Shown here: in pieces, positions 1 through 56,308 of the stretch
Layout: the number at the start of each line of letters is the position of its first letter
Numbering within the stretch: the stretch's first letter is position 1
Assembly: GCA_035457825.1 (NCBI GenBank)
Contig: DATIAY010000171.1
Location: 6,920 to 70,919, forward strand
DNA from: Candidatus Methylomirabilota bacterium
Lineage (GTDB): Bacteria; Methylomirabilota; Methylomirabilia; Rokubacteriales; CSP1-6
Direction of reading: 5' to 3'
Length of the DNA: 64,000 nt
Position numbers and translations under genes: made by a program
The notes under the pieces: model-generated
The model's database searches: none
The model's input: the letters and a program-made list of their open reading frames with translations, nothing else
What the model was told of the DNA's origin: nothing

Positions 1-1
1 G

Positions 2-625
2 CCCCTCATCGGTTTTGCCGGCGCGCCGTTCACGGTGGCCTCCTACCTCGTCGAGGGCGGGCCCGCGCGCGACTACCTGCACACCAAGCGGCTCATGCAT
101 GAGGAGCCCGAGGCCTGGCACCGCCTCATGGATCTGCTCGCCGAGGCCACCGCGCGCTACCTCAACGGCCAGATCGCGGCCGGCGCCGAGGTCGTGCAGC
201 TCTTCGACTCGTGGGTGGGCGTGCTCAGCCCGGCCGACTACCGCGCCTTCGTCCAGCCCCACGTCCGCGCCGTGATGAAGGCCCTGGTACCCGGTGTTCC
301 CGTCATCCATTTCGGGACGGGCACGGCGGGGTTGCTGGAGCCCATGCGTGACGCGGGCGGCCACGTGATCGGCCTCGATTGGCGCGTGGACCTCGACACC
401 GCCTGGGAGACCCTGGGTCCCGACGTCGCGGTGCAGGGTAACCTCGATCCCGCCGCGTTGCTGGCGCCGCCGGCAGTGTTCAAGGAGCGCGTGCGCGACA
501 TCCTGACCAGGGCCGGCCACCGGCCCGGGCATATCTTCAACCTTGGTCACGGTGTCCTGCCCCAGACCCCCGTGGACCACGCCCGCGCCCTCGTCGACAT
601 GGTCCACGAAATGAGCACCAAGTGA
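2..625 (+). CDS. hemE: uroporphyrinogen decarboxylase (5' end outside window)
   Basis: Reading frame runs from the window edge. Translation (FAGAPFTVASYLVEGGPARDYLHTKRLM...NLGHGVLPQTP) matches the C-terminal two-thirds of the UroD family. Confidence 0.85.
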   Translation, partial: PLIGFAGAPFTVASYLVEGGPARDYLHTKRLMHEEPEAWHRLMDLLAEATARYLNGQIAAGAEVVQLFDSWVGVLSPADYRAFVQPHVRAVMKALVPGVPVIHFGTGTAGLLEPMRDAGGHVIGLDWRVDLDTAWETLGPDVAVQGNLDPAALLAPPAVFKERVRDILTRAGHRPGHIFNLGHGVLPQTPVDHARALVDMVHEMSTK

Positions 626-636
626 AGACCCAACGC

Positions 637-766
637 AGCCACGCCGCACCTTGAGCAGGCCACCCTCGAAACTAGGCGGACTGGCGGGCCCCGCTACAGT
701 ACGGAGCCACGCCGCACCTTGAGCAGGCCACCCTCGAAACTAGGCGGACTGGCGGGCCCCGCTACA
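637..766 (+). repeat. tandem duplication of a 62-nt unit (period 68 nt, 2 copies) in the hemE-hemH spacer; copy 2 contains the hemH TTG start
   Basis: agccacgccgcacc-ttgagcaggccaccctcgaaactaggcggactggcgggccccgctaca occurs at 637-698 and 705-766. Confidence 0.7.
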
Positions 767-1726
767 ATAGATGCCGTTCTGCTGATCGCGTTTGGCGGTC
801 CCACCGCCCCGCACGAGATCCGCCCCTTTCTGGAAGTCGTCACACGAGGTCGGCGCATCCCACTGGAGCGATTGGAGGCGGTGGCCCGCCACTACGAGCA
901 GATGCCGGGCGGGCGGTCTCCGCTGAACGAATTGACCGACGCTCAGGCGCGCGCGCTGGCTGCGGCTCTGGCCGCCGAGGGGTCAGCGCTGCCGGTGTTC
1001 GTGGGCATGCGTAACTGGCGTCCCTGGCTTCGCGACACGCTGGCGGCGATGGCGGCCCACGGGCATCGCCAGGTTCTCGGCGTGATCCTCTCGCCGCTCC
1101 GCACCGAGGCCTCGTGGGAGCGCTACATGGCCGACGTGGCCCAGGCGCGGGCCGCGATCCCGGAGGCCCCGGACGTCGTGTTCGCTCCGGCCTGGTTCGA
1201 TCACCCCGGATTCGTCGAGGCCGTCGCCGACCGCTGCCGCCAGGCCTTCGCGCAGGTGCCGGCCGCCGCGCGTGGCGAAACGCCGCTCGTCTTCACCGCC
1301 CACAGTGTCCCCGTCGCCATGGCGGCGGCGTCGCCCTACGTCGCCGACTTCACGGCGGCGTCGCGCCAGGTCGCCTCGCGGCTCGGCCATGAGCGATGGT
1401 CGCTCGCCTATCAGAGCCGGAGCGGCAGTCCCGGTGAGCCCTGGCTCGAGCCCGACATCAACGACGTCGCGCGCGCGCTCGCCCGTGAGGGCGCTCGCCA
1501 CGTCGTCGTGGCGCCGATCGGGTTCGTGTGTGATCACGTAGAGGTGCTCTATGACCTCGACGTGGAGGCGTGCGCCACTGCCCGCGCCGCCGGGCTCGCC
1601 CTGCACCGCGCGCCGGCCGTCAACGACCATCCCGCGTTCATCGCCGCGCTCGCCGAGATCGTCCGCCGTCACGTGAACGGCCCGGGTGTGACGCCGCAGG
1701 CCGGCCCCGGGGCGGGGCGGCGATGA
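719..1726 (+). CDS. hemH: ferrochelatase (possibly coproporphyrin ferrochelatase)
   Basis: VLLIAFGGPTAPHEI N-terminus and FTAHSVP / VAPIGFVCDHVEVLYDLD motifs. TTG start at 719; no in-frame ATG upstream of the conserved N-terminus. Confidence 0.85.
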   Translation: MSRPPSKLGGLAGPATIDAVLLIAFGGPTAPHEIRPFLEVVTRGRRIPLERLEAVARHYEQMPGGRSPLNELTDAQARALAAALAAEGSALPVFVGMRNWRPWLRDTLAAMAAHGHRQVLGVILSPLRTEASWERYMADVAQARAAIPEAPDVVFAPAWFDHPGFVEAVADRCRQAFAQVPAAARGETPLVFTAHSVPVAMAAASPYVADFTAASRQVASRLGHERWSLAYQSRSGSPGEPWLEPDINDVARALAREGARHVVVAPIGFVCDHVEVLYDLDVEACATARAAGLALHRAPAVNDHPAFIAALAEIVRRHVNGPGVTPQAGPGAGRR

Positions 1727-3141
1727 GGCTGGTTGTGATCGGCGGCGGCATCGCGGGACTCGCCGCCGCGCACCGGGCGGTGGAGCTCGCCCGCGAGCGA
1801 AGCATCCCGCTCGACCTCACGGTCCTGGAGGCCCGCGATCGCCTGGGCGGCACCATCGAGACCGAGCGCGCGGGCGGCTTTCTCATCGAGGCGGGCCCGG
1901 ACTCGTTCCTGTCCGAGAAGCCCTGGGCCCTGGCCCTCTGCCGCCGCCTCGGGCTCGAGCCACGTCTCGTCGGCACCGACGACCGGTTCCGACGCACGTT
2001 CGTCTGGTTCCGCGGCCGCCTGCACCCGCTGCCGGAAGGGTTCCAGTTGTTGGCGCCGACCCGGCTCCGCCCCTTTCTCGCCTCACGCCTCCTGTCCTGG
2101 CCGGGGAAAGCGCGGATGGCCCTCGACGTGATCTTACCGCGCGGCGCGGCCGGTGATGACGAGAGCCTGGGGGCGTTCGTGCGTCGCCGGCTGGGGCGGG
2201 AGGCCCTCGAGCGTGTGGCCCAGCCGCTCGTGGCCGGGATCTACACCGCCGACCCCGAAGAGCTGAGCCTGCGAGCGACGATGCCCCGCTTCCTCGAGCT
2301 GGAGCGGGCGCAACGCAGTCTCATCATCGGGCTCTGGCGAGCCAGCCGGGGTGGGCCGGCGGCGTCGGGCACCAGCGGGGCGCGCTGGAGCCTCTTTGTC
2401 ACGCTAAGCGATGGGATGGGAGAGCTGGTGCACGCGCTGGCCGCGCGCCTGCCGGCCGGCGCCGTCCATCTCAAGCGGCGCGTCACCGGCGTCGTGCGTC
2501 GCGCGGCGGCCTGGGCCGTCGATGGCGGGGGGCCCACCGTCGAGGCCGACCGCGTGATCGTCGCCGTCGAGGCGCACGCGGCGAGCCGGCTCCTCCGCTA
2601 CGTCGATCCCTCATTGACCACCTTGCTGCAGGTGATCCCCTATGCGTCGTCGGCGACCGTCTCGCTCGGCTACCAGCGCGCCGCCATCCGGCATCCGCTC
2701 GACGGCTTCGGGTTCGTGGTACCGCGGGTGGAGGGTCAAGCGCTACTGGCATGCACGTTTTCGAGCGTGAAGTACCCCGGACGCGCCCCCGACGGACACG
2801 TCCTGCTCCGCTGCTTCCTGGGCGGTGCTCTGAACGCGGGCATCCTCGAGCGCGATGACGATGAGCTGGTCCGCCTGGCCGGCCAGGAGCTAGCCGCCGC
2901 TCTCGGCCTAGTTGGCGAGCCCATTCTGATCCGCGTGGCCCGTCATCCCGCGGCGATGCCGCAGTACGTGATCGGCCACCTCAGGACGCTGGAGGCGATC
3001 GACCAACGCCTGCAGGCGGCCCCTGGCCTCTACCTGGCCGGCTCCGCCTATCGGGGTATCGGCATCGCGGACTGTGTGAGGTCAGGCGAGGCCGCTGCCG
3101 AACGGGCACTCCTCGGGGACGCTGGTCGCGTGACGCAATGA
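1723..3141 (+). CDS. hemY: protoporphyrinogen/coproporphyrinogen III oxidase, HemY family
   Basis: MRLVVIGGGIAGLAAA Rossmann N-terminus. ATG overlaps the hemH stop (ATGA). FAD amine-oxidase fold motifs throughout. Confidence 0.85.
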   Translation: MRLVVIGGGIAGLAAAHRAVELARERSIPLDLTVLEARDRLGGTIETERAGGFLIEAGPDSFLSEKPWALALCRRLGLEPRLVGTDDRFRRTFVWFRGRLHPLPEGFQLLAPTRLRPFLASRLLSWPGKARMALDVILPRGAAGDDESLGAFVRRRLGREALERVAQPLVAGIYTADPEELSLRATMPRFLELERAQRSLIIGLWRASRGGPAASGTSGARWSLFVTLSDGMGELVHALAARLPAGAVHLKRRVTGVVRRAAAWAVDGGGPTVEADRVIVAVEAHAASRLLRYVDPSLTTLLQVIPYASSATVSLGYQRAAIRHPLDGFGFVVPRVEGQALLACTFSSVKYPGRAPDGHVLLRCFLGGALNAGILERDDDELVRLAGQELAAALGLVGEPILIRVARHPAAMPQYVIGHLRTLEAIDQRLQAAPGLYLAGSAYRGIGIADCVRSGEAAAERALLGDAGRVTQ

Positions 3142-6717: not shown

Positions 6718-7616
6718 CTTCGCCGCTCCTTGCTCGCCCTGCGTCCTCTCGCCGGAAGGGCGCGTTCGTGTGCCGCGAGCCGTCCGGCCAACCCGGCCGC
6801 TGCTGCCACCGGCTCCGCGCACGGCGACTGCCAGTGGGCGGGCAGCCCCGCGAGCCTGACCGCCCGCTTGAGCCCGGCCCGGAACCACGCATCGGCGCAC
6901 ACGCTGCCCGCCCAACTCAACGTCACCGGCCGGCCCAAGCGCAGCCGTTTTGCCACGTCGGCCGCCTGCGCTGCCAGGTGGCCTTGCCCGGCCCGCACGA
7001 TGGCGCGAGCACGCGCGTCGCCACGCCGAGCGCGCCGGATCACGGCGGGTGCCAGCGCGGCGACGCGCACGACGGCATCCGGACCCGTCACCAGGCGGCG
7101 CGCCGGACGGAAGTCCTCGCCTCGCGAGGTGATGCGCAGCCACTGCTGACCTAGCCAGAAGGCCGAGCCCTCATCACCCAGCAGGGGTCCGAGTCCACCG
7201 GCCCGCGCCCATCGGCCACCGGGGTTCCGGCCGATCACGATTGATCCGGTACCGCTGAGGATCAGCACACCCGGGCGCTCCCCGAGCGCGCCAAGATGCG
7301 CGGCCTGCGCATCGGAGAGGACGACGACGCGCCGGGCGAAGTTGCCGAGCCGGCGAGCGAGCGCGCGCCGCTCGCCGGCGGTCCACACGCCGCGCGAAGC
7401 CACGACCAGGGCTCCGACGGTGCGCGCCGTCCAGCTGCGCCGTCGCCAGAGCGCACGAAAGAGCGAGCCGACTTCACCGACCGGCGCCGCCCGGGCTGTG
7501 AAGCGCGCCAGTGGTCTGTCGCCGCGCATCGCCTGGGCGCGCAGCCACGTCGCGCCGAGGTCGACGCCGACAGCGATTGCGGGAACGCGATCCTTGCCCT
7601 GTCGAATCATGAACAT
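6714..7616 (-). CDS. BadF/BadG/BcrA/BcrD-family ATPase (GlcNAc/MurNAc-kinase-like)
   Basis: AIAVGVDLGATWLR N-terminal phosphate-1 motif, ILSGTGSIVIG and GDEGSAFWLG motifs of the acetate/sugar kinase superfamily. Confidence 0.65.
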   Translation of the reverse strand: MFMIRQGKDRVPAIAVGVDLGATWLRAQAMRGDRPLARFTARAAPVGEVGSLFRALWRRRSWTARTVGALVVASRGVWTAGERRALARRLGNFARRVVVLSDAQAAHLGALGERPGVLILSGTGSIVIGRNPGGRWARAGGLGPLLGDEGSAFWLGQQWLRITSRGEDFRPARRLVTGPDAVVRVAALAPAVIRRARRGDARARAIVRAGQGHLAAQAADVAKRLRLGRPVTLSWAGSVCADAWFRAGLKRAVRLAGLPAHWQSPCAEPVAAAAGLAGRLAAHERALPARGRRASKERRR

Positions 7617-16546: not shown

Positions 16547-17344
16547 ATGCGCTTGGCCGGCAAGGTCGCGATCGTCACAGGGGGAGGCAGTGGCATCGGG
16601 CGGGGGATCGCCATGGCACTGGCCCGCGAGGGTGCCGACGTGGCCATTCCCGACATCCAGGTTTTGAACGCGGAGAAGGTCTCCGACGAGATCAAGGGGC
16701 TAGGCCGAAAGGCGATGGCCATGAAGGCCGACGTGACCAGCTCCGCCGACGTCAAGACCATGGTCGATCGGACGCGCGAGTCCCTGGGCAAGATCGACAT
16801 CCTGGTGAACAACGCCGGTATGGCGGCCCCCCCGGGCATGCCCTTCACCAACAACACCGAGGACGACTGGGACCGGGCCTTCGCCGTCAACACCAAGTCG
16901 GTATTCCTCACGTGCAAGGCCGTGGCGCCCTACTTCATCGAGCGCAAGGCCGGGCGGATCATCAACATCGCGTCGATCGCCGGGCCGCTCGCGGCCGTCA
17001 CCATGCCGGCCTACAGCGTGGCCAAGCAGGGCGTGATCACGTTCACGCGCGTGGTGGCCAAGGAGCTGGCGGCGCACCGAATCACCGTGAACGCGATCTG
17101 CCCCGGCGTGTTGTGGACGGATTTCTGGCAGAAGCTCGCGGCCCACATCGCGCAGACCAATCCGGCCTTCGCAGGACTGACGCCCCGGCAGGTGTTCGAC
17201 AAGCGGGTCAGCGACATCGTGCCGATGAAATGTGAGCAGGAGCCAGAGGACATCGGCGCGGCTGCGGTCTTCCTGGCTTCAGACGAAGCGCGCTACATCA
17301 CCGGCCAGGCCCTCATGGTCGACGGCGGCTGCGTGATGTGGTAG
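16547..17344 (+). CDS. SDR-family oxidoreductase (FabG-like)
   Basis: TGGGSGIGRG cofactor motif, NNAG, YSVAK catalytic motif. GGAGG RBS 7 nt upstream of the ATG. Confidence 0.85.
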   Translation: MRLAGKVAIVTGGGSGIGRGIAMALAREGADVAIPDIQVLNAEKVSDEIKGLGRKAMAMKADVTSSADVKTMVDRTRESLGKIDILVNNAGMAAPPGMPFTNNTEDDWDRAFAVNTKSVFLTCKAVAPYFIERKAGRIINIASIAGPLAAVTMPAYSVAKQGVITFTRVVAKELAAHRITVNAICPGVLWTDFWQKLAAHIAQTNPAFAGLTPRQVFDKRVSDIVPMKCEQEPEDIGAAAVFLASDEARYITGQALMVDGGCVMW

Positions 17345-17462
17345 TGCGAGCCGAGGCGCGGCGGGCGGCGAGGCGAGCGGTGAGATGGTCGTGGTAGTGC
17401 GAGCTGAGGCGCGCTCGGGCGGCGAGGCGAGCGGTGAGATGATCGAAGTATGCGAGGGATGA
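17344..17462 (+). repeat. 2.5 tandem copies of a 53-nt unit after the SDR gene, forming TAGTG-overlapped mini-ORFs
   Basis: tgcgagc[ct]gaggcgcg...ggcgaggcgagcggtgagatg[ga]tcg..gta recurs at 17345, 17398 and 17451. Confidence 0.6.
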
Positions 17463-37144: not shown

Positions 37145-38254
37145 ATGCCGCGATTCGGGATCTTCGTTTTCGCGATGCTCGTGGCGCTGGCGGCGGGCTC
37201 GGCGGCCGCGCAAGCCCCCATCGAGAGCGAGCTCGTGCTCATCACCCCGGTGTCGAAGTTCATCCACGACGCTGCCCTGAAGGCCTTCGCCGAGTACGCC
37301 AAAGAGAGGTGGAACGTCAGCGTGAAGGTCAACGCCATCCCCGCCGGCACCCCGATCGCGTATGGACGCATCGTGGAGTGGAAGGGCCGGCCCGAGGCCG
37401 ACATCTTCTGGGGGGGCGAGTCGGCGCTCTTCGAGAAGCTGACCGAGCAGAAACTGCTTCAGAAGGTCGAGATCGGTCGCGAGGCGTGGGATTCGATCCC
37501 GGCCTCGATCGGTAAACCGAAACCCATTCCCCTCAAAGACAAGGAAGGCTACTGGGTGGGCACGGCCCTGGAGCCGTATGGCCTCGTCTACCACCCCCGG
37601 AGGCTCCAGCGGCTGGGTGTTCCCGAGCCCAAGGAGTGGGACGACCTCCTGCATCCCAAGCTCCGCGGCGAGGTCGCGCAATGCGCGCCCACCCGCTCCT
37701 CGTCGTCGAACGCGACCTACGAGGTGATGTTGTCGATGCACAGGGAGGAAAAGGGCTGGGAGTGGCTCAAGCGCCTCGCCGCCAACACCGGACATTTCAC
37801 CGCGCGCAGCCGTGACGTGCCCACCGTGGTGGCCAAGGGCGAGTACGCCGCAGGCTTCGCGGTGCCCTCGTACATGGCCTTCGAGGAGAAGCTGGCCGGG
37901 TTCGACATCAAGTTCGTGGCCCCCCGGAACGCCTTCGTGACCCCGGAGCCCATGGCGATCCTTGCCGGGGCCCGCAACCCCAGGGCGGCCCGCGCGTTCA
38001 TCGAATTTCTGCTCACCGAAAGGGGCCAGAAGGTGTTCATGGAGCGCGGCCTGTTTCCCATCACCCCCCGCTTCCGGGTCCAGGGCCCGCCGGGCTCCAC
38101 GGCGGAAAAGGCCGTCGAGTTCACCGGCGGGGTGCGCTCGTATTTCGATGGCGAGGTCGCCAACGTCTATGACGAGGGCGTCGCGGCCAAGCGATCGGAG
38201 GCGCTCAAGCAGCGATACCGCGCGGACATCGAGGCGGTCTGGAAGAAGCCCTGA
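37145..38254 (+). CDS. ABC transporter substrate-binding protein (Fe3+/thiamine/spermidine type, SBP family 1)
   Basis: Signal peptide MPRFGIFVFAMLVALAAGSAAAQA; bilobed SBP similar to FbpA/AfuA. Confidence 0.75.
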   Translation: MPRFGIFVFAMLVALAAGSAAAQAPIESELVLITPVSKFIHDAALKAFAEYAKERWNVSVKVNAIPAGTPIAYGRIVEWKGRPEADIFWGGESALFEKLTEQKLLQKVEIGREAWDSIPASIGKPKPIPLKDKEGYWVGTALEPYGLVYHPRRLQRLGVPEPKEWDDLLHPKLRGEVAQCAPTRSSSSNATYEVMLSMHREEKGWEWLKRLAANTGHFTARSRDVPTVVAKGEYAAGFAVPSYMAFEEKLAGFDIKFVAPRNAFVTPEPMAILAGARNPRAARAFIEFLLTERGQKVFMERGLFPITPRFRVQGPPGSTAEKAVEFTGGVRSYFDGEVANVYDEGVAAKRSEALKQRYRADIEAVWKKP

Positions 38255-38317
38255 CGGGGCCACACCACCCCGAGCAGGCCACCCTCGGCTCAAGCCGGGC
38301 GGCGACGCTTCGTTACC

Positions 38318-39382
38318 ATGACCACCATCTCTCTGCGCGGCGTCCTCAAGCGGTTCGGCGGCGTCATCGCGGTGGACGGCGCCAGTGTCGATGTCGGTGA
38401 TGGCGAGCTGTTCACGCTGCTGGGTCCGTCAGGCTGCGGCAAGACCACGCTGCTCAGGCTGATCGCCGGGTTCTACAAGCCCGACGCCGGCGAGATCTGG
38501 TTCGGTGATCGCCGCGTGGACGGCGTGCCCGTCTACGCCCGCAACATCGGCATGGTCTTCCAGAACTATGCTCTCTGGCCCCACATGACGGTGCGGGCGA
38601 ACATCACCTATGGTCTCCGGCTGCGCCGCCTGGCTGCCGCCGAGATCGAGCGCCGGCTGGCCGAGGTGCTGGGCAAGGTCAACCTGGTGGGGTTGGAGGG
38701 GCGCTACCCCGGCCAGCTCTCGGGGGGCCAGCAGCAACGGGTGGCGTTGGCCCGCGCGCTCGTCCTCAATCCCGAGATCCTCCTGCTCGACGAGCCACTC
38801 TCCAACCTGGACGCCAAGATCCGGGTGCAAGTTCGGACGGAGATCCGCCGCCTGCAGCGAGAGCTGGGGATTACCACGGTGTACGTCACCCACGACCAGG
38901 AAGAGGCGCTGTCGCTGTCCGATCGAGTGGCGGTCATGCGACAGGGCATTATCTTGCAGACTGCTACCCCCAAGGAGCTCTACGAGCGCCCGGGCACACG
39001 CTTCGTAGCCGACTTCGTGGGGGTGAACAACTTCATCGCGGGCGTCTGCCGCGAGGCGGGCAACGGCCGGGTCGTCGTGGAAACGCCGCTCGGCCGCCTG
39101 CGCGGGCGCCCGGGCCGCGTGATACAACCCGGCGAGCGTTGTGTCCTGGCCGTCCGCCCCGAGAACATCGCGCTGGGGCCGGGGCCCGAGAATTCCTGCC
39201 CGGGTCGTGTCGTGCTCGCCTCGTATCTGGGCAGCATCCTGCGTTACGACGTGGAGACGGCCGCGGGACAACTCCTGAAGGTCGACGTGCGCGACCCCTG
39301 GCACCACGAGGTGCTGGCCCCGGGGGCCCAGGTCATCCTCTCTTTTCCCTCGTCGACGGCGCTGACGCTGGCCGATGACTGA
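38318..39382 (+). CDS. ABC transporter ATP-binding protein (FbpC/PotA type, with C-terminal TOBE-like domain)
   Basis: Walker A GPSGCGKTT, LSGGQQQRVALARAL, LLLDEPLSNLD. Confidence 0.85.
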   Translation: MTTISLRGVLKRFGGVIAVDGASVDVGDGELFTLLGPSGCGKTTLLRLIAGFYKPDAGEIWFGDRRVDGVPVYARNIGMVFQNYALWPHMTVRANITYGLRLRRLAAAEIERRLAEVLGKVNLVGLEGRYPGQLSGGQQQRVALARALVLNPEILLLDEPLSNLDAKIRVQVRTEIRRLQRELGITTVYVTHDQEEALSLSDRVAVMRQGIILQTATPKELYERPGTRFVADFVGVNNFIAGVCREAGNGRVVVETPLGRLRGRPGRVIQPGERCVLAVRPENIALGPGPENSCPGRVVLASYLGSILRYDVETAAGQLLKVDVRDPWHHEVLAPGAQVILSFPSSTALTLADD

Positions 39383-54924: not shown

Positions 54925-55520
54925 GCCGAGCGCTGCGCCAGGCCCGTGTGGAACGCAAGACGAAGGAGACCGAGGTGGCGATCAGCCTCAACCTCGACGG
55001 CACCGGTGCCGCCAAGGTCGGCACCCCGATCCCCTTCTTCAGCCACATGCTCGAGGCGTGGGCGAAGCACGGCCTCATGGACCTCACGGTGGAAGCGAGT
55101 GGGGACGTCGAGGTGGACATCCACCACACCGTCGAGGATGTCGGCATCGTGCTGGGACAGGCCCTCCGCGAGGCCTTCGGCGACAAGCGCGGCATCGTTC
55201 GCTACGGGACCGCCTTCGTGCCCATGGACGAGGCCCTCGTCGCGGCCGCCGTCGACATCTCGGGGCGCCCGTACCTCGTGTTCAACGTGCCGGTGGCCCG
55301 CACCCGGGTGGCCAACTTCGACCTCGACATGCTCCAGGAGTTCTTCCGGGCCTTCGCCTTCAATGCCGAGATCACCCTGCACGTGACCATGCATTACGGT
55401 CATAACCTGCACCACATCACGGAGGCCGTATTCAAGGCCGTGGGGCGGGCGCTGGCCGAGGCCAGCCGGATCAACCCTCGCATCGCCGACGTTCTGCCAT
55501 CGACCAAGGGACGCCTGTGA
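54921..55520 (+). CDS. hisB: imidazoleglycerol-phosphate dehydratase
   Basis: RKTKETEV N-terminus, and DIHHTVEDVGI / HYGHNLHH metal-binding motifs. Confidence 0.9.
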
Positions 55521-55652
55521 TGGTGGTCGTGCGAGCCGCAGGTGAAGGCGAGGTGAGCCTGTGATGGTGGTCGTGCGAGCCGCAGGTGAAGGCGAGGCGA
55601 GCCGGTGATGGTGGTCGTGCGAGCCGCAGGCGAAGGCGAGGCGAGCCGGTGA
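55520..55652 (+). repeat. three tandem 44-nt units, each a 14-codon mini-ORF (MVVVRAAGEGE-V/A-S-L/R), chained by TGATG overlaps from the hisB stop to the hisH GTG
   Basis: Units read directly at 55520-55564, 55564-55608 and 55608-55652. Period 44 = 45-1. Confidence 0.65.
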
Positions 55653-56308
55653 TCGCAATCATCGATTATGGCCGCGGCAACCTGGGTTCCGTGGAAAAGG
55701 CCTTCCAGCGGGTCGGTGTGCCGGCGACGGTCACCGAGGATCCGCGCGTCGTCGAGGACGCCGAGGCCGTGGTGCTCCCCGGGGACGGGGCGTTCCACGA
55801 CGCGATGGCCAATCTGGAGCAACTGGAGTTGCGGGCGCCGCTGTTGCGCGCCCTGGACGGGCGCCGGCCCTTCCTGGGAATCTGCCTGGGCTATCAGCTG
55901 CTGTTCTCGAGCAGCGAGGAGTTCGGCCAGGGCCGCGGGCTGGACGTCATCCCCGGCGTGGTGCGGCGGTTCCCGGCCGGCCGGAAGGTCCCGCACATGG
56001 GCTGGAATCGCGTCCACGGTGGCGGCGGGCTCCGGCTGTTCGAGGGGATCCCCGACGGCGCCCACTTCTACTTCGTCCACTCTTTTTATCCGGTTGTAGC
56101 GGGGGCCGCAAGCTCGGGTAGGACCGAGGGTGGCCGGCCCCCGGCGGCCGGAGCTCCGGAGGTGGCGTGGTGCGAGTACGGTGTGCGATTCGCGGCCGCC
56201 CTGGAGCGTGGGCGGATCTTCGCGACGCAGTTCCACCCCGAAAAGAGTCAGCGCTGGGGGCTGCGGCTCCTCGAGAACTTTGCCGCGCTCGTGAAGAGCG
56301 GCGGATGA
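55649..56308 (+). CDS. hisH: imidazole glycerol phosphate synthase, glutamine amidotransferase subunit
   Basis: IAIIDYGRGNL N-terminus, catalytic GICLGYQLL and HPEKS. GTG overlaps the last mini-ORF stop (GTGA). Confidence 0.85.
   Translation: MIAIIDYGRGNLGSVEKAFQRVGVPATVTEDPRVVEDAEAVVLPGDGAFHDAMANLEQLELRAPLLRALDGRRPFLGICLGYQLLFSSSEEFGQGRGLDVIPGVVRRFPAGRKVPHMGWNRVHGGGGLRLFEGIPDGAHFYFVHSFYPVVAGAASSGRTEGGRPPAAGAPEVAWCEYGVRFAAALERGRIFATQFHPEKSQRWGLRLLENFAALVKSGG

Follow-up and report, generated by a model that had tools for sequence, protein, structure and literature searches.

A tandem array of a dispersed operon-junction repeat at the predicted hemH start of a Rokubacteriales genome, with an upstream reading frame as its probable by-product

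Why should the region around the predicted start codon of a ferrochelatase gene be present twice, head-to-tail, at the junction with the preceding gene? In this work we have analysed a 64,000-nt stretch of DNA (the window; positions 6,920 to 70,919 of contig DATIAY010000171.1, assembly GCA_035457825.1) from a Candidatus Methylomirabilota bacterium of the order Rokubacteriales. Its hemE–hemH junction carries a 68-nt tandem repeat and, with it, a short upstream open reading frame (uORF) whose stop codon overlaps the hemH start. The original prediction saw here an initiation region specific to hemH, duplicated as a decoy or regulatory uORF. Our analyses point to another explanation: the repeat is probably a tandem array of a dispersed junction element of ~66–70 nt, the uORF is its automatic by-product, and the effect on the cell would most likely be near-neutral. 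The features of the locus are the following:

1–625, + strand: 3' part of hemE (uroporphyrinogen decarboxylase; TIGR01464, E = 2.8e-64), with the tail VDMVHEMSTK and the stop TGA at 623–625
633–700, + strand: element copy 1 (nhmmer span 626–700; E = 2e-15 against the hidden Markov model, HMM, of the family)
701–768, + strand: element copy 2, which holds the hemH start (nhmmer span 699–772; E = 6e-17)
699–704, + strand: copy junction GTACGG, with both inter-copy mismatches (699, 704) inside it
651–722, + strand: uORF of 23 codons from the open reading frame (ORF) listing, with its TTG in copy 1 and its TGA (720–722) in copy 2
719–1726, + strand: hemH (ferrochelatase), 335 aa, TTG start in copy 2; TIGR00109, PF00762; identical to HSF07072.1
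1723–3141, + strand: hemY (protoporphyrinogen/coproporphyrinogen oxidase; TIGR00562), which overlaps the hemH stop as ATGA (1723–1726) at an element-free junction

The 68-nt unit occurs twice, at 633–700 and 701–768, and a repeat search found 66 of the 68 positions identical (97%). Tandem Repeats Finder (TRF) likewise reported one single strong tandem repeat (633–766, period 68, 2.0 copies, 98% matches, score 261), and an exact 61-mer is shared by 638–698 and 706–766, with none in 100 shuffled sequences. The duplication of the hemH start region with a period of 68, as originally predicted, is thus confirmed by all three analyses. The copies differ at two positions (636 C against 704 G, and 699 G against 767 A), both beside the junction, and the 3' end of copy 2, GCTACAAT, leads into the conserved hemH N-terminus (IDAVLL). 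Compared with the usual join of the family, in which ...TACA is followed by ACG(G/C)AGCC, the junction in the window carries two extra bases (GT).

Is this array real? The source is a short-read metagenome-assembled genome (MAG), and the element interrupts assemblies at other loci, where copies stand at contig ends (L115, L129, L150, L185, L197 and L201; loci used for comparison are designated by L numbers); both facts would favour the idea that the assembler doubled a single-copy locus, for example from strain variants. Against it stands an independent NCBI MAG contig (L201, GCA_035763905.1), 98.7% identical to window 633–1826, whose array has two full copies and the 3' end of another, that is at least three copies, and the same junction as the window (CAGT followed by ACGGAGCC). 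Two shared A to G changes, at the positions that correspond to 671/739 and 680/748, set both of its full copies apart from the two window copies. Moreover, the junction GTACGG is a unique sequence that must be present in the reads, and arrays are common in the element family. The hemY of a Logan contig (L197) is identical, and this contig starts at window position 737; we infer that a 31-mer graph would be expected to break precisely there if ...GCTACA precedes both A and G. Because L201 has the same array, with the same junction and more copies, we regard an assembly artefact as essentially excluded; the original prediction had left the existence of the duplication to independent assemblies, and in this one it is present. 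We conclude that the array is real and that it would have arisen after the split from L140, a relative described below, and before the strains of the window and of L201 diverged. We also conclude that the array changes copy number and that its copies appear to be homogenised.

What is the repeated unit? The hemE–hemH spacers of relatives share a motif regardless of reading frame. In a motif scan (GCCAC-N11-12-GCAGGCCACCCTCG, one genome per species), the exact core was found, among the matches listed, on at least six contigs of SD8033 bin.13 and at least four of SMAG_U3894; the matches in Rokubacteria MAGs share ~70 nt of flanking similarity, whereas those in other phyla lack similarity in their flanks. 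Forty copies (alignment A1) align as an element of ~70 nt with the invariant core GCCACCC-CG, and the consensus of the ~66–70-nt element is roughly ACG(G/C)AGCCACnCGCaCCTnnnGCAGGCCACCCTCGGnnnGAGCCGGnCTCGCGGnCCCCGCTACAA. The core GCAGGCCACCCTCGG hardly varies, even between genomes with hemH proteins of only ~70% identity. Two modules are apparent, a 5' one of ~40 nt ending in GCAGGCCACCCTCGG and a 3' one of ~30 nt ending in CGCTACAA, and they are separately duplicated; one subfamily has a different 3' module. In A1, most rows of the main family have CTAC (GTAG on the reverse strand) at the 3' end, with the variants TAAC, TCCA and TAAA. A profile HMM built for the family, used with nhmmer, located four copies in the window: the two at hemH (626–700 and 699–772) and two others:

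38249–38322, + strand: third element copy (nhmmer E = 5.5e-9), between genes for a solute-binding protein and an ABC ATPase (Pfam)
56160–56093, − strand: fourth, diverged element copy (nhmmer E = 4.5e-10; feature 56093–56160), inside hisH (55649–56308, + strand; Pfam GATase)

A cmscan of window positions 1–3000 against Rfam 15 (E <= 10) gave no match in 626–772, and the literature on Rokubacteria/Methylomirabilota repeats and on 'mobile promoters' yielded no description of the element. It is thus apparently an undescribed dispersed repeat of ~70 nt, specific to Rokubacteria/Methylomirabilota.

The copies share a position as well as a sequence. Among the 39 copies with a callable downstream ORF, 36 are co-oriented with the downstream gene, corresponding by our own count to ~15 independent loci against 3. 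The start codons are placed at the 3' end of the element or at most ~15 nt from it, and upstream stop codons mostly a few nt from its 5' end; at some loci an internal TAG or TGA of the element terminates the upstream gene. The 3' end, ...CCCCGCTACAA, adjoins or supplies the start codon (TACAATG in L006 and L010, TACAGTG in L073, TACCATG at window 38318 and in L170), and in other copies it is followed by a Shine–Dalgarno sequence plus start codon (L115, L150, L156) or by N6-GTG (L091, L147, L171). The third copy of the window fills the whole 63-nt gap from the TGA of the solute-binding protein gene (38252–38254) to the ATG of the ABC ATPase gene (38318), which has no Shine–Dalgarno sequence and stands directly after the element end GTTACC. 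An A as fourth base (ATGA) follows the element-associated start at 9 of 14 independent loci by our own count, which is suggestive only, and no TACA target preference was seen in the 5' flanks of solo copies. One exception to the usual junction context was noted: the copy at L131:7922–7991 (− strand) has next to it no protein-coding start but a tRNA-like sequence (…TGGAGCGGGAAACGGGATTCGAACCC…), which lies on the opposite strand and meets the element with its 3' end. Many copies, as in the short-read contigs named above, stand at the extreme contig ends, so that the family appears to fragment Rokubacteria assemblies.

Tandem arrays of the element are not confined to the window. Before hemH, L010 has two copies with a period of ~70, which is not of the form 3n−1. 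At another locus, L120 has three copies, and L129 has two with a period of 79. L002 has one full and one partial copy, L007 and L023 have two copies each between hemH and hemY, L156 carries the 5' module three times, and L154, L191 and L193 carry the 3' module twice. Every array seen (window, L010, L120, L129, L201) is direct and head-to-tail, joined at the same element ends. Judged from these sequences, whole copies or sub-modules have repeatedly been amplified in tandem, and the copy number differs among near-identical strains.

The fourth copy shows that the element may also end up within a protein. It is read in frame in hisH as VVAGAASSGRTEGGRPPAAGAPE, with the wider in-frame translation ...YPVVAGAASSGRTEGGRPPAAGAPEVAWCEYG. 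Rokubacteria HisH proteins are 204 aa long when insert-free and up to 278 aa with the insert, which is placed at one loop and corresponds to the reverse-translated element; within it, a 45-nt (15-aa) sub-repeat, GLSPVAGAPDARSTA, is present once, twice or three times in the near-identical proteins P0122, P0124 and P0125. This argues that the sequence spreads and expands whether or not it has a regulatory role.

The window also holds a second, unrelated family of junction repeats, whose motif is GCGAGCCG...GGCGAGGCGAGC, each unit being bounded by GTGA. It forms tandem arrays at 17334–17456 (x2.3, period 54, after a gene end at ~17340) and at 55513–55653 (x3.2, period 44, in the hisB–hisH spacer), and single copies, flanked by TGA...(A/G)TGA, were found in L149 and L154, in the latter again between hisB and hisH. 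The original prediction had counted hemH as the third locus of the window in which a tandem repeat gives phased overlapping ORFs; tandem repeats do exist at the other loci, but they belong to this GTGA-bounded family, so that phased ORFs would be a general property of such repeats rather than a sign of hemH regulation.

How the array came to lie before hemH can be approached through the relatives. In Rokubacteria that lack the element, the stop of hemE overlaps the start of hemH, in the form ATGA or GTGA. The element stands before hemH in 7 of the 66 loci with enough upstream sequence and is missing there in 59; the comparison of spacers that the original prediction called for, one copy or two, thus gave one in L140, two in L010 and, for the large majority, none. 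In three of the 66 loci the element lies between hemH and hemY instead (L005:2417–2492, L007:2410–2621 and L023:2446–2588), and there hemH runs into the element and stops at its internal TAG, with hemY starting at a GTGA right behind. L006, L010 and L073 have the layout TGA-7 nt-element-(A/G)TGA. The ATG proximal to hemH has been lost in the window, L140, L001 and L002 (ACAATCGAC in L001, ACAATAGAT in the window), and hemH initiation is placed inside the element, at an ATG in L002-type genomes (MAPATID) and at a TTG in the window, L140 and L001. A TTG at that element column is found in only 5 of the 40 rows of A1, four of them hemH copies; most rows have TAG. The sequence from L140 (DATBIM010000050, 7345–7445), 92% identical to the window, has one element copy and no uORF. 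Owing to a short deletion there, the hemE frame continues into the element (…HEMSARSHAAP-stop) and ends at the TGA of ccTTGAgc, over the hemH TTG. A relative thus has TTGA coupling at this very codon, its upstream partner being hemE, and the deletion is one that restores, as we read it, a 4-nt stop/start overlap through the element.

Where does hemH start, and what does the uORF amount to? The genes hemE and hemH are in the same frame, and from 626 to 719 the TTG at 719 is the only in-frame ATG, GTG or TTG; it is also the sole canonical in-frame start in the whole stretch from the hemE stop to the conserved N-terminus of the ferrochelatase (IDAVLLIAFGG). Among proteins, hemH is matched best by ferrochelatases from Rokubacteria/Methylomirabilota, and most homologues begin right before DAVLL (MIDAVLL, MTDAVLL) or at MAPATID. 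TTG 719 is also the NCBI call (HSF07072.1, 335 aa); for a relative, NCBI annotates the corresponding TTG form (HEY7363529.1), and L140 and L001 use this TTG as well. The nearest GGAG lies 12 nt upstream, in copy 2, at a poor spacing. TTG 719 is thus the best call for the hemH start, and here the original prediction stands, as it does for its coordinates, the period, the 23-codon ORF and the TTGA overlap at 719–722, in which the uORF stop (720–722) and the hemH TTG (719–721) share a 4-nt stop/start overlap. Start calls can differ for near-identical sequence: L201 is given a 366-aa ferrochelatase (its positions 1–150 correspond to window 626–770, with the TTG in a degenerate third copy) against 335 aa in the MAG of the window, an inconsistency caused by the repeat.

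The uORF peptide has 23 aa (MSRPPSKLGGLAGPATVRSHAAP), and its C-terminus, RSHAAP-stop, is the same reading of the element as the hemE tail in L140. Its TTG at 651 sits 25 nt past the hemE stop without a Shine–Dalgarno sequence upstream (...AACGCAGCCACGCCGCACC contains no GGAG; the GGAG of copy 2 is GCAG in copy 1). Coding constraint, be it on the uORF or on the N-terminal extension, was considered and rejected, given that the window, L140 and L001 differ mostly non-synonymously; between the window and L140 there are four non-synonymous and two synonymous codon changes among 18 codons. From base composition we estimate a chance of ~65%, at 70% G+C, that a stretch of 22 codons is free of stops. 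The phasing that the original prediction had found striking follows from arithmetic: any period of 3n−1 that contains TTGA yields a phased overlap, so the phasing does not exceed chance. With the start codon inside the unit, followed by TTGA, and with 68 equal to 3n−1, each extra copy makes an ORF that ends on the next TTG, and a three-copy array would give a chain of TTGA-linked ORFs. Most likely, then, the uORF is a by-product of copy-number change and not a dedicated regulator. A role as a relay, with ribosomes that end at the TTGA reinitiating on hemH, is possible though rather unlikely. Overlaps of 4 nt couple translation efficiently, whereas gaps of ~20 nt nearly abolish coupling by termination–reinitiation (PMC10666635; PMC6728339), and reinitiation at a distance of ~25 nt is poor in E. 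coli and Haloferax (PMC10666635).

Does the element contain a recognizable signal? RNAalifold on the 40 copies returned no consensus pairs, and hairpins proposed by hand for the 5' and 3' parts were discarded, with 64.7% of cells paired against 63.2% in shuffles and no covariation. The region folds more weakly than its shuffles (minimum free energy z = +0.90 and +1.19), no inverted repeats were found in 600–800 (seed 6, minimum length 8), and the two ends of the element, ACGSAGCC and CGCTACAA, show no complementarity; what is conserved is its primary sequence, not a structure. A consensus scan of 400–1100 found no promoter-like sites, by the sigma-70 criterion of −35/−10 hexamers spaced by 16–18 nt with a conserved T at the last −10 position, and no terminator-like sites. 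The idea of TACAAT as a −10 hexamer loses weight, as its last base varies (T/A/C) in A1 and it overlaps start codons. Pairing of the core with the 3' region of 16S rRNA was dropped, the universal sequence giving only a 5-nt match. Flanks of the type TGA ... (A/G)TGA recur at hemE–hemH of L006, L010 and L073, at 38252/38318 and in the second family; the need for a stop and a start demands the same pattern.

Two functional explanations have to be weighed against a by-product of a spreading repeat. The first, a dedicated regulatory uORF that arose by the duplication and tunes ferrochelatase translation as a decoy N-terminus, could draw on the TTGA overlap of its stop with the hemH start, on the same overlap with hemE in L140, which makes coupling at this codon plausible, and on the maintenance of the array in two strains. 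We consider it nonetheless quite improbable. The duplicated unit is not an initiation region specific to hemH but a generic dispersed element that stands before many unrelated genes and forms similar tandem copies at unrelated loci; it is single in L140, the closest species-level relative, and lacking at most hemH loci. The period of ~70 in L010 means that the phasing is not conserved, and neither is the peptide; TTG 651 has no Shine–Dalgarno sequence, and the copy number is two in one strain and at least three in the other.

Alternatively, the element might act in cis as an expression module under selection (a portable promoter, for example, or a translation-initiation region, or a site that binds a conserved protein or RNA), whose function would be doubled before hemH; this is unlikely in our view, although it does not exclude the explanation by tandem amplification and could hold together with it. 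The orientation of 36 of 39 copies towards a downstream gene at whose start codon they end, and the near-invariance of GCAGGCCACCCTCGG in genomes with hemH proteins so diverged, are what such a module would lead one to expect. Divergent intergenic copies with TACAAT-N6-GTG (L147, L171, L091) have the look of leaderless-type promoters, and RNA less folded than shuffles would favour initiation independent of a Shine–Dalgarno sequence. On the other side, the last base of the −10-like hexamer varies and 400–1100 holds no promoter-like site; many operon copies have TACAATG over the start codon, so that a transcript from such a −10 would miss the start. One copy is reversed and translated in hisH, covariation and Rfam matches are lacking, and the element is patchy at orthologous junctions.

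We propose that the ancestral hemE–hemH junction was a 4-nt ATGA/GTGA overlap, into which the element would have entered, a state that may be kept in L006, L010 and L073. In the clade of the window a 3-nt deletion would then have removed the proximal ATG, and hemH initiation would have shifted to the TTG of the element, or to an ATG in L002-type genomes. After the split from L140, the element would have been doubled by slippage or unequal exchange, and since then the array would have varied in size (two copies here, at least three in L201) with homogenisation of its copies. The consequence would most likely be near-neutral; should ribosomes start at TTG 651 at all, the uORF would pass them on to hemH as a relay and not act as a decoy. 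Some points weigh against this explanation. The mechanism of spread is one of them, as there are no terminal inverted repeats (600–800) and no clear target-site duplication; the TGA...NTGA flanks might be there because a stop and a start are selected for, and not as the trace of such a duplication. The orientation bias and the invariant core of 11–15 nt could mean a selected cis-acting function, in which case the duplication might affect expression. The hemH start at TTG 719 is a sequence-based call, and the relay needs initiation at TTG 651, which lacks a Shine–Dalgarno sequence and is separated from the hemE stop by 25 nt, where reinitiation works poorly in E. coli and Haloferax (PMC10666635).

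For hemH itself the outcome is deflationary: we find no evidence of a dedicated haem-related uORF switch, and the duplication looks like noise in the copy number of a generic repeat. More interest attaches to the repeat family, placed as it is at junctions where element-free relatives have ATGA overlaps, and donating start and stop codons. Should the family be mobile and target junctions, it would have a bearing on how operon coupling is broken and rebuilt and how start codons migrate, and also on the fragmentation of Rokubacteria MAGs and their inconsistent gene starts. A bolder hypothesis, which we put forward tentatively and hold to be rather unlikely, is that mobile 'junction cassettes', small, oriented and non-palindromic, occur as families in Rokubacteria, prefer NTGA operon overlaps, duplicate the TGA, provide an upstream stop and a downstream start or initiation region, and then expand and contract into chains of TTGA relay ORFs, the hisH copy having been turned into an in-frame protein loop of variable length. 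Were this true, the cassettes would be a previously unrecognised way in which selfish repeats uncouple or re-wire translation within operons.

How does the element compare with known systems? REP/BIME sequences and REPINs belong to enterobacteria and Pseudomonas and are mobilised by RAYT Y1 transposases. The element resembles REP/BIME in being short (tens of nt), G+C-rich, multi-copy, intergenic in operons and often clustered; a GTAG at the start of its 3' module on the reverse strand, present in most rows of the main family and replaced by variants in others, may be a further likeness to REPs. Unlike them, it has no palindrome or stem-loop (no inverted repeats, weak folding, no covariation), its arrays are direct and head-to-tail where REPs form inverted pairs, and it is strongly oriented to the downstream gene. 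[quoted passage not shown] The many dispersed copies per genome (at least six contigs in SD8033 bin.13, at least four in SMAG_U3894, four copies in the 64-kb window) fit this picture, but the element has no terminal inverted repeats, is not known to have a parent insertion sequence and, at ~70 nt, is shorter than most MITEs. Rickettsia palindromic elements, in the summary of Ogata et al. 2000 given in PMC10969869, sit in frame in protein-coding genes. The hisH copy is similar, as a repeat tolerated in frame in a loop of a conserved enzyme. It differs in that intragenic placement is exceptional here and placement at junctions usual, in that the element has no palindrome, and in that its sub-repeat number behaves like a variable number tandem repeat.

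At the level of translation, the locus shares with termination–reinitiation of the ATGA type (PMC6728339, PMC10666635) the TTGA overlap of uORF stop and hemH start, and both the probable ancestral hemE–hemH junction and the present hemH–hemY junctions are ATGA/GTGA, with TTGA at hemE–hemH in L140. It departs from that type in its upstream partner, a by-product ORF of 23 codons, predicted only, without a Shine–Dalgarno sequence and 25 nt after the hemE stop. Leader peptides and bacterial uORFs are also short ORFs directly upstream of, and overlapping, a main start; here, in contrast, peptide and uORF are not conserved in relatives, there is no attenuator or terminator structure, and the ORF would have arisen from a copy-number change of a generic repeat. 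On the evidence of its sequence and placement, we would class the element with the 'small dispersed bacterial repeats', as a non-palindromic, oriented junction repeat.

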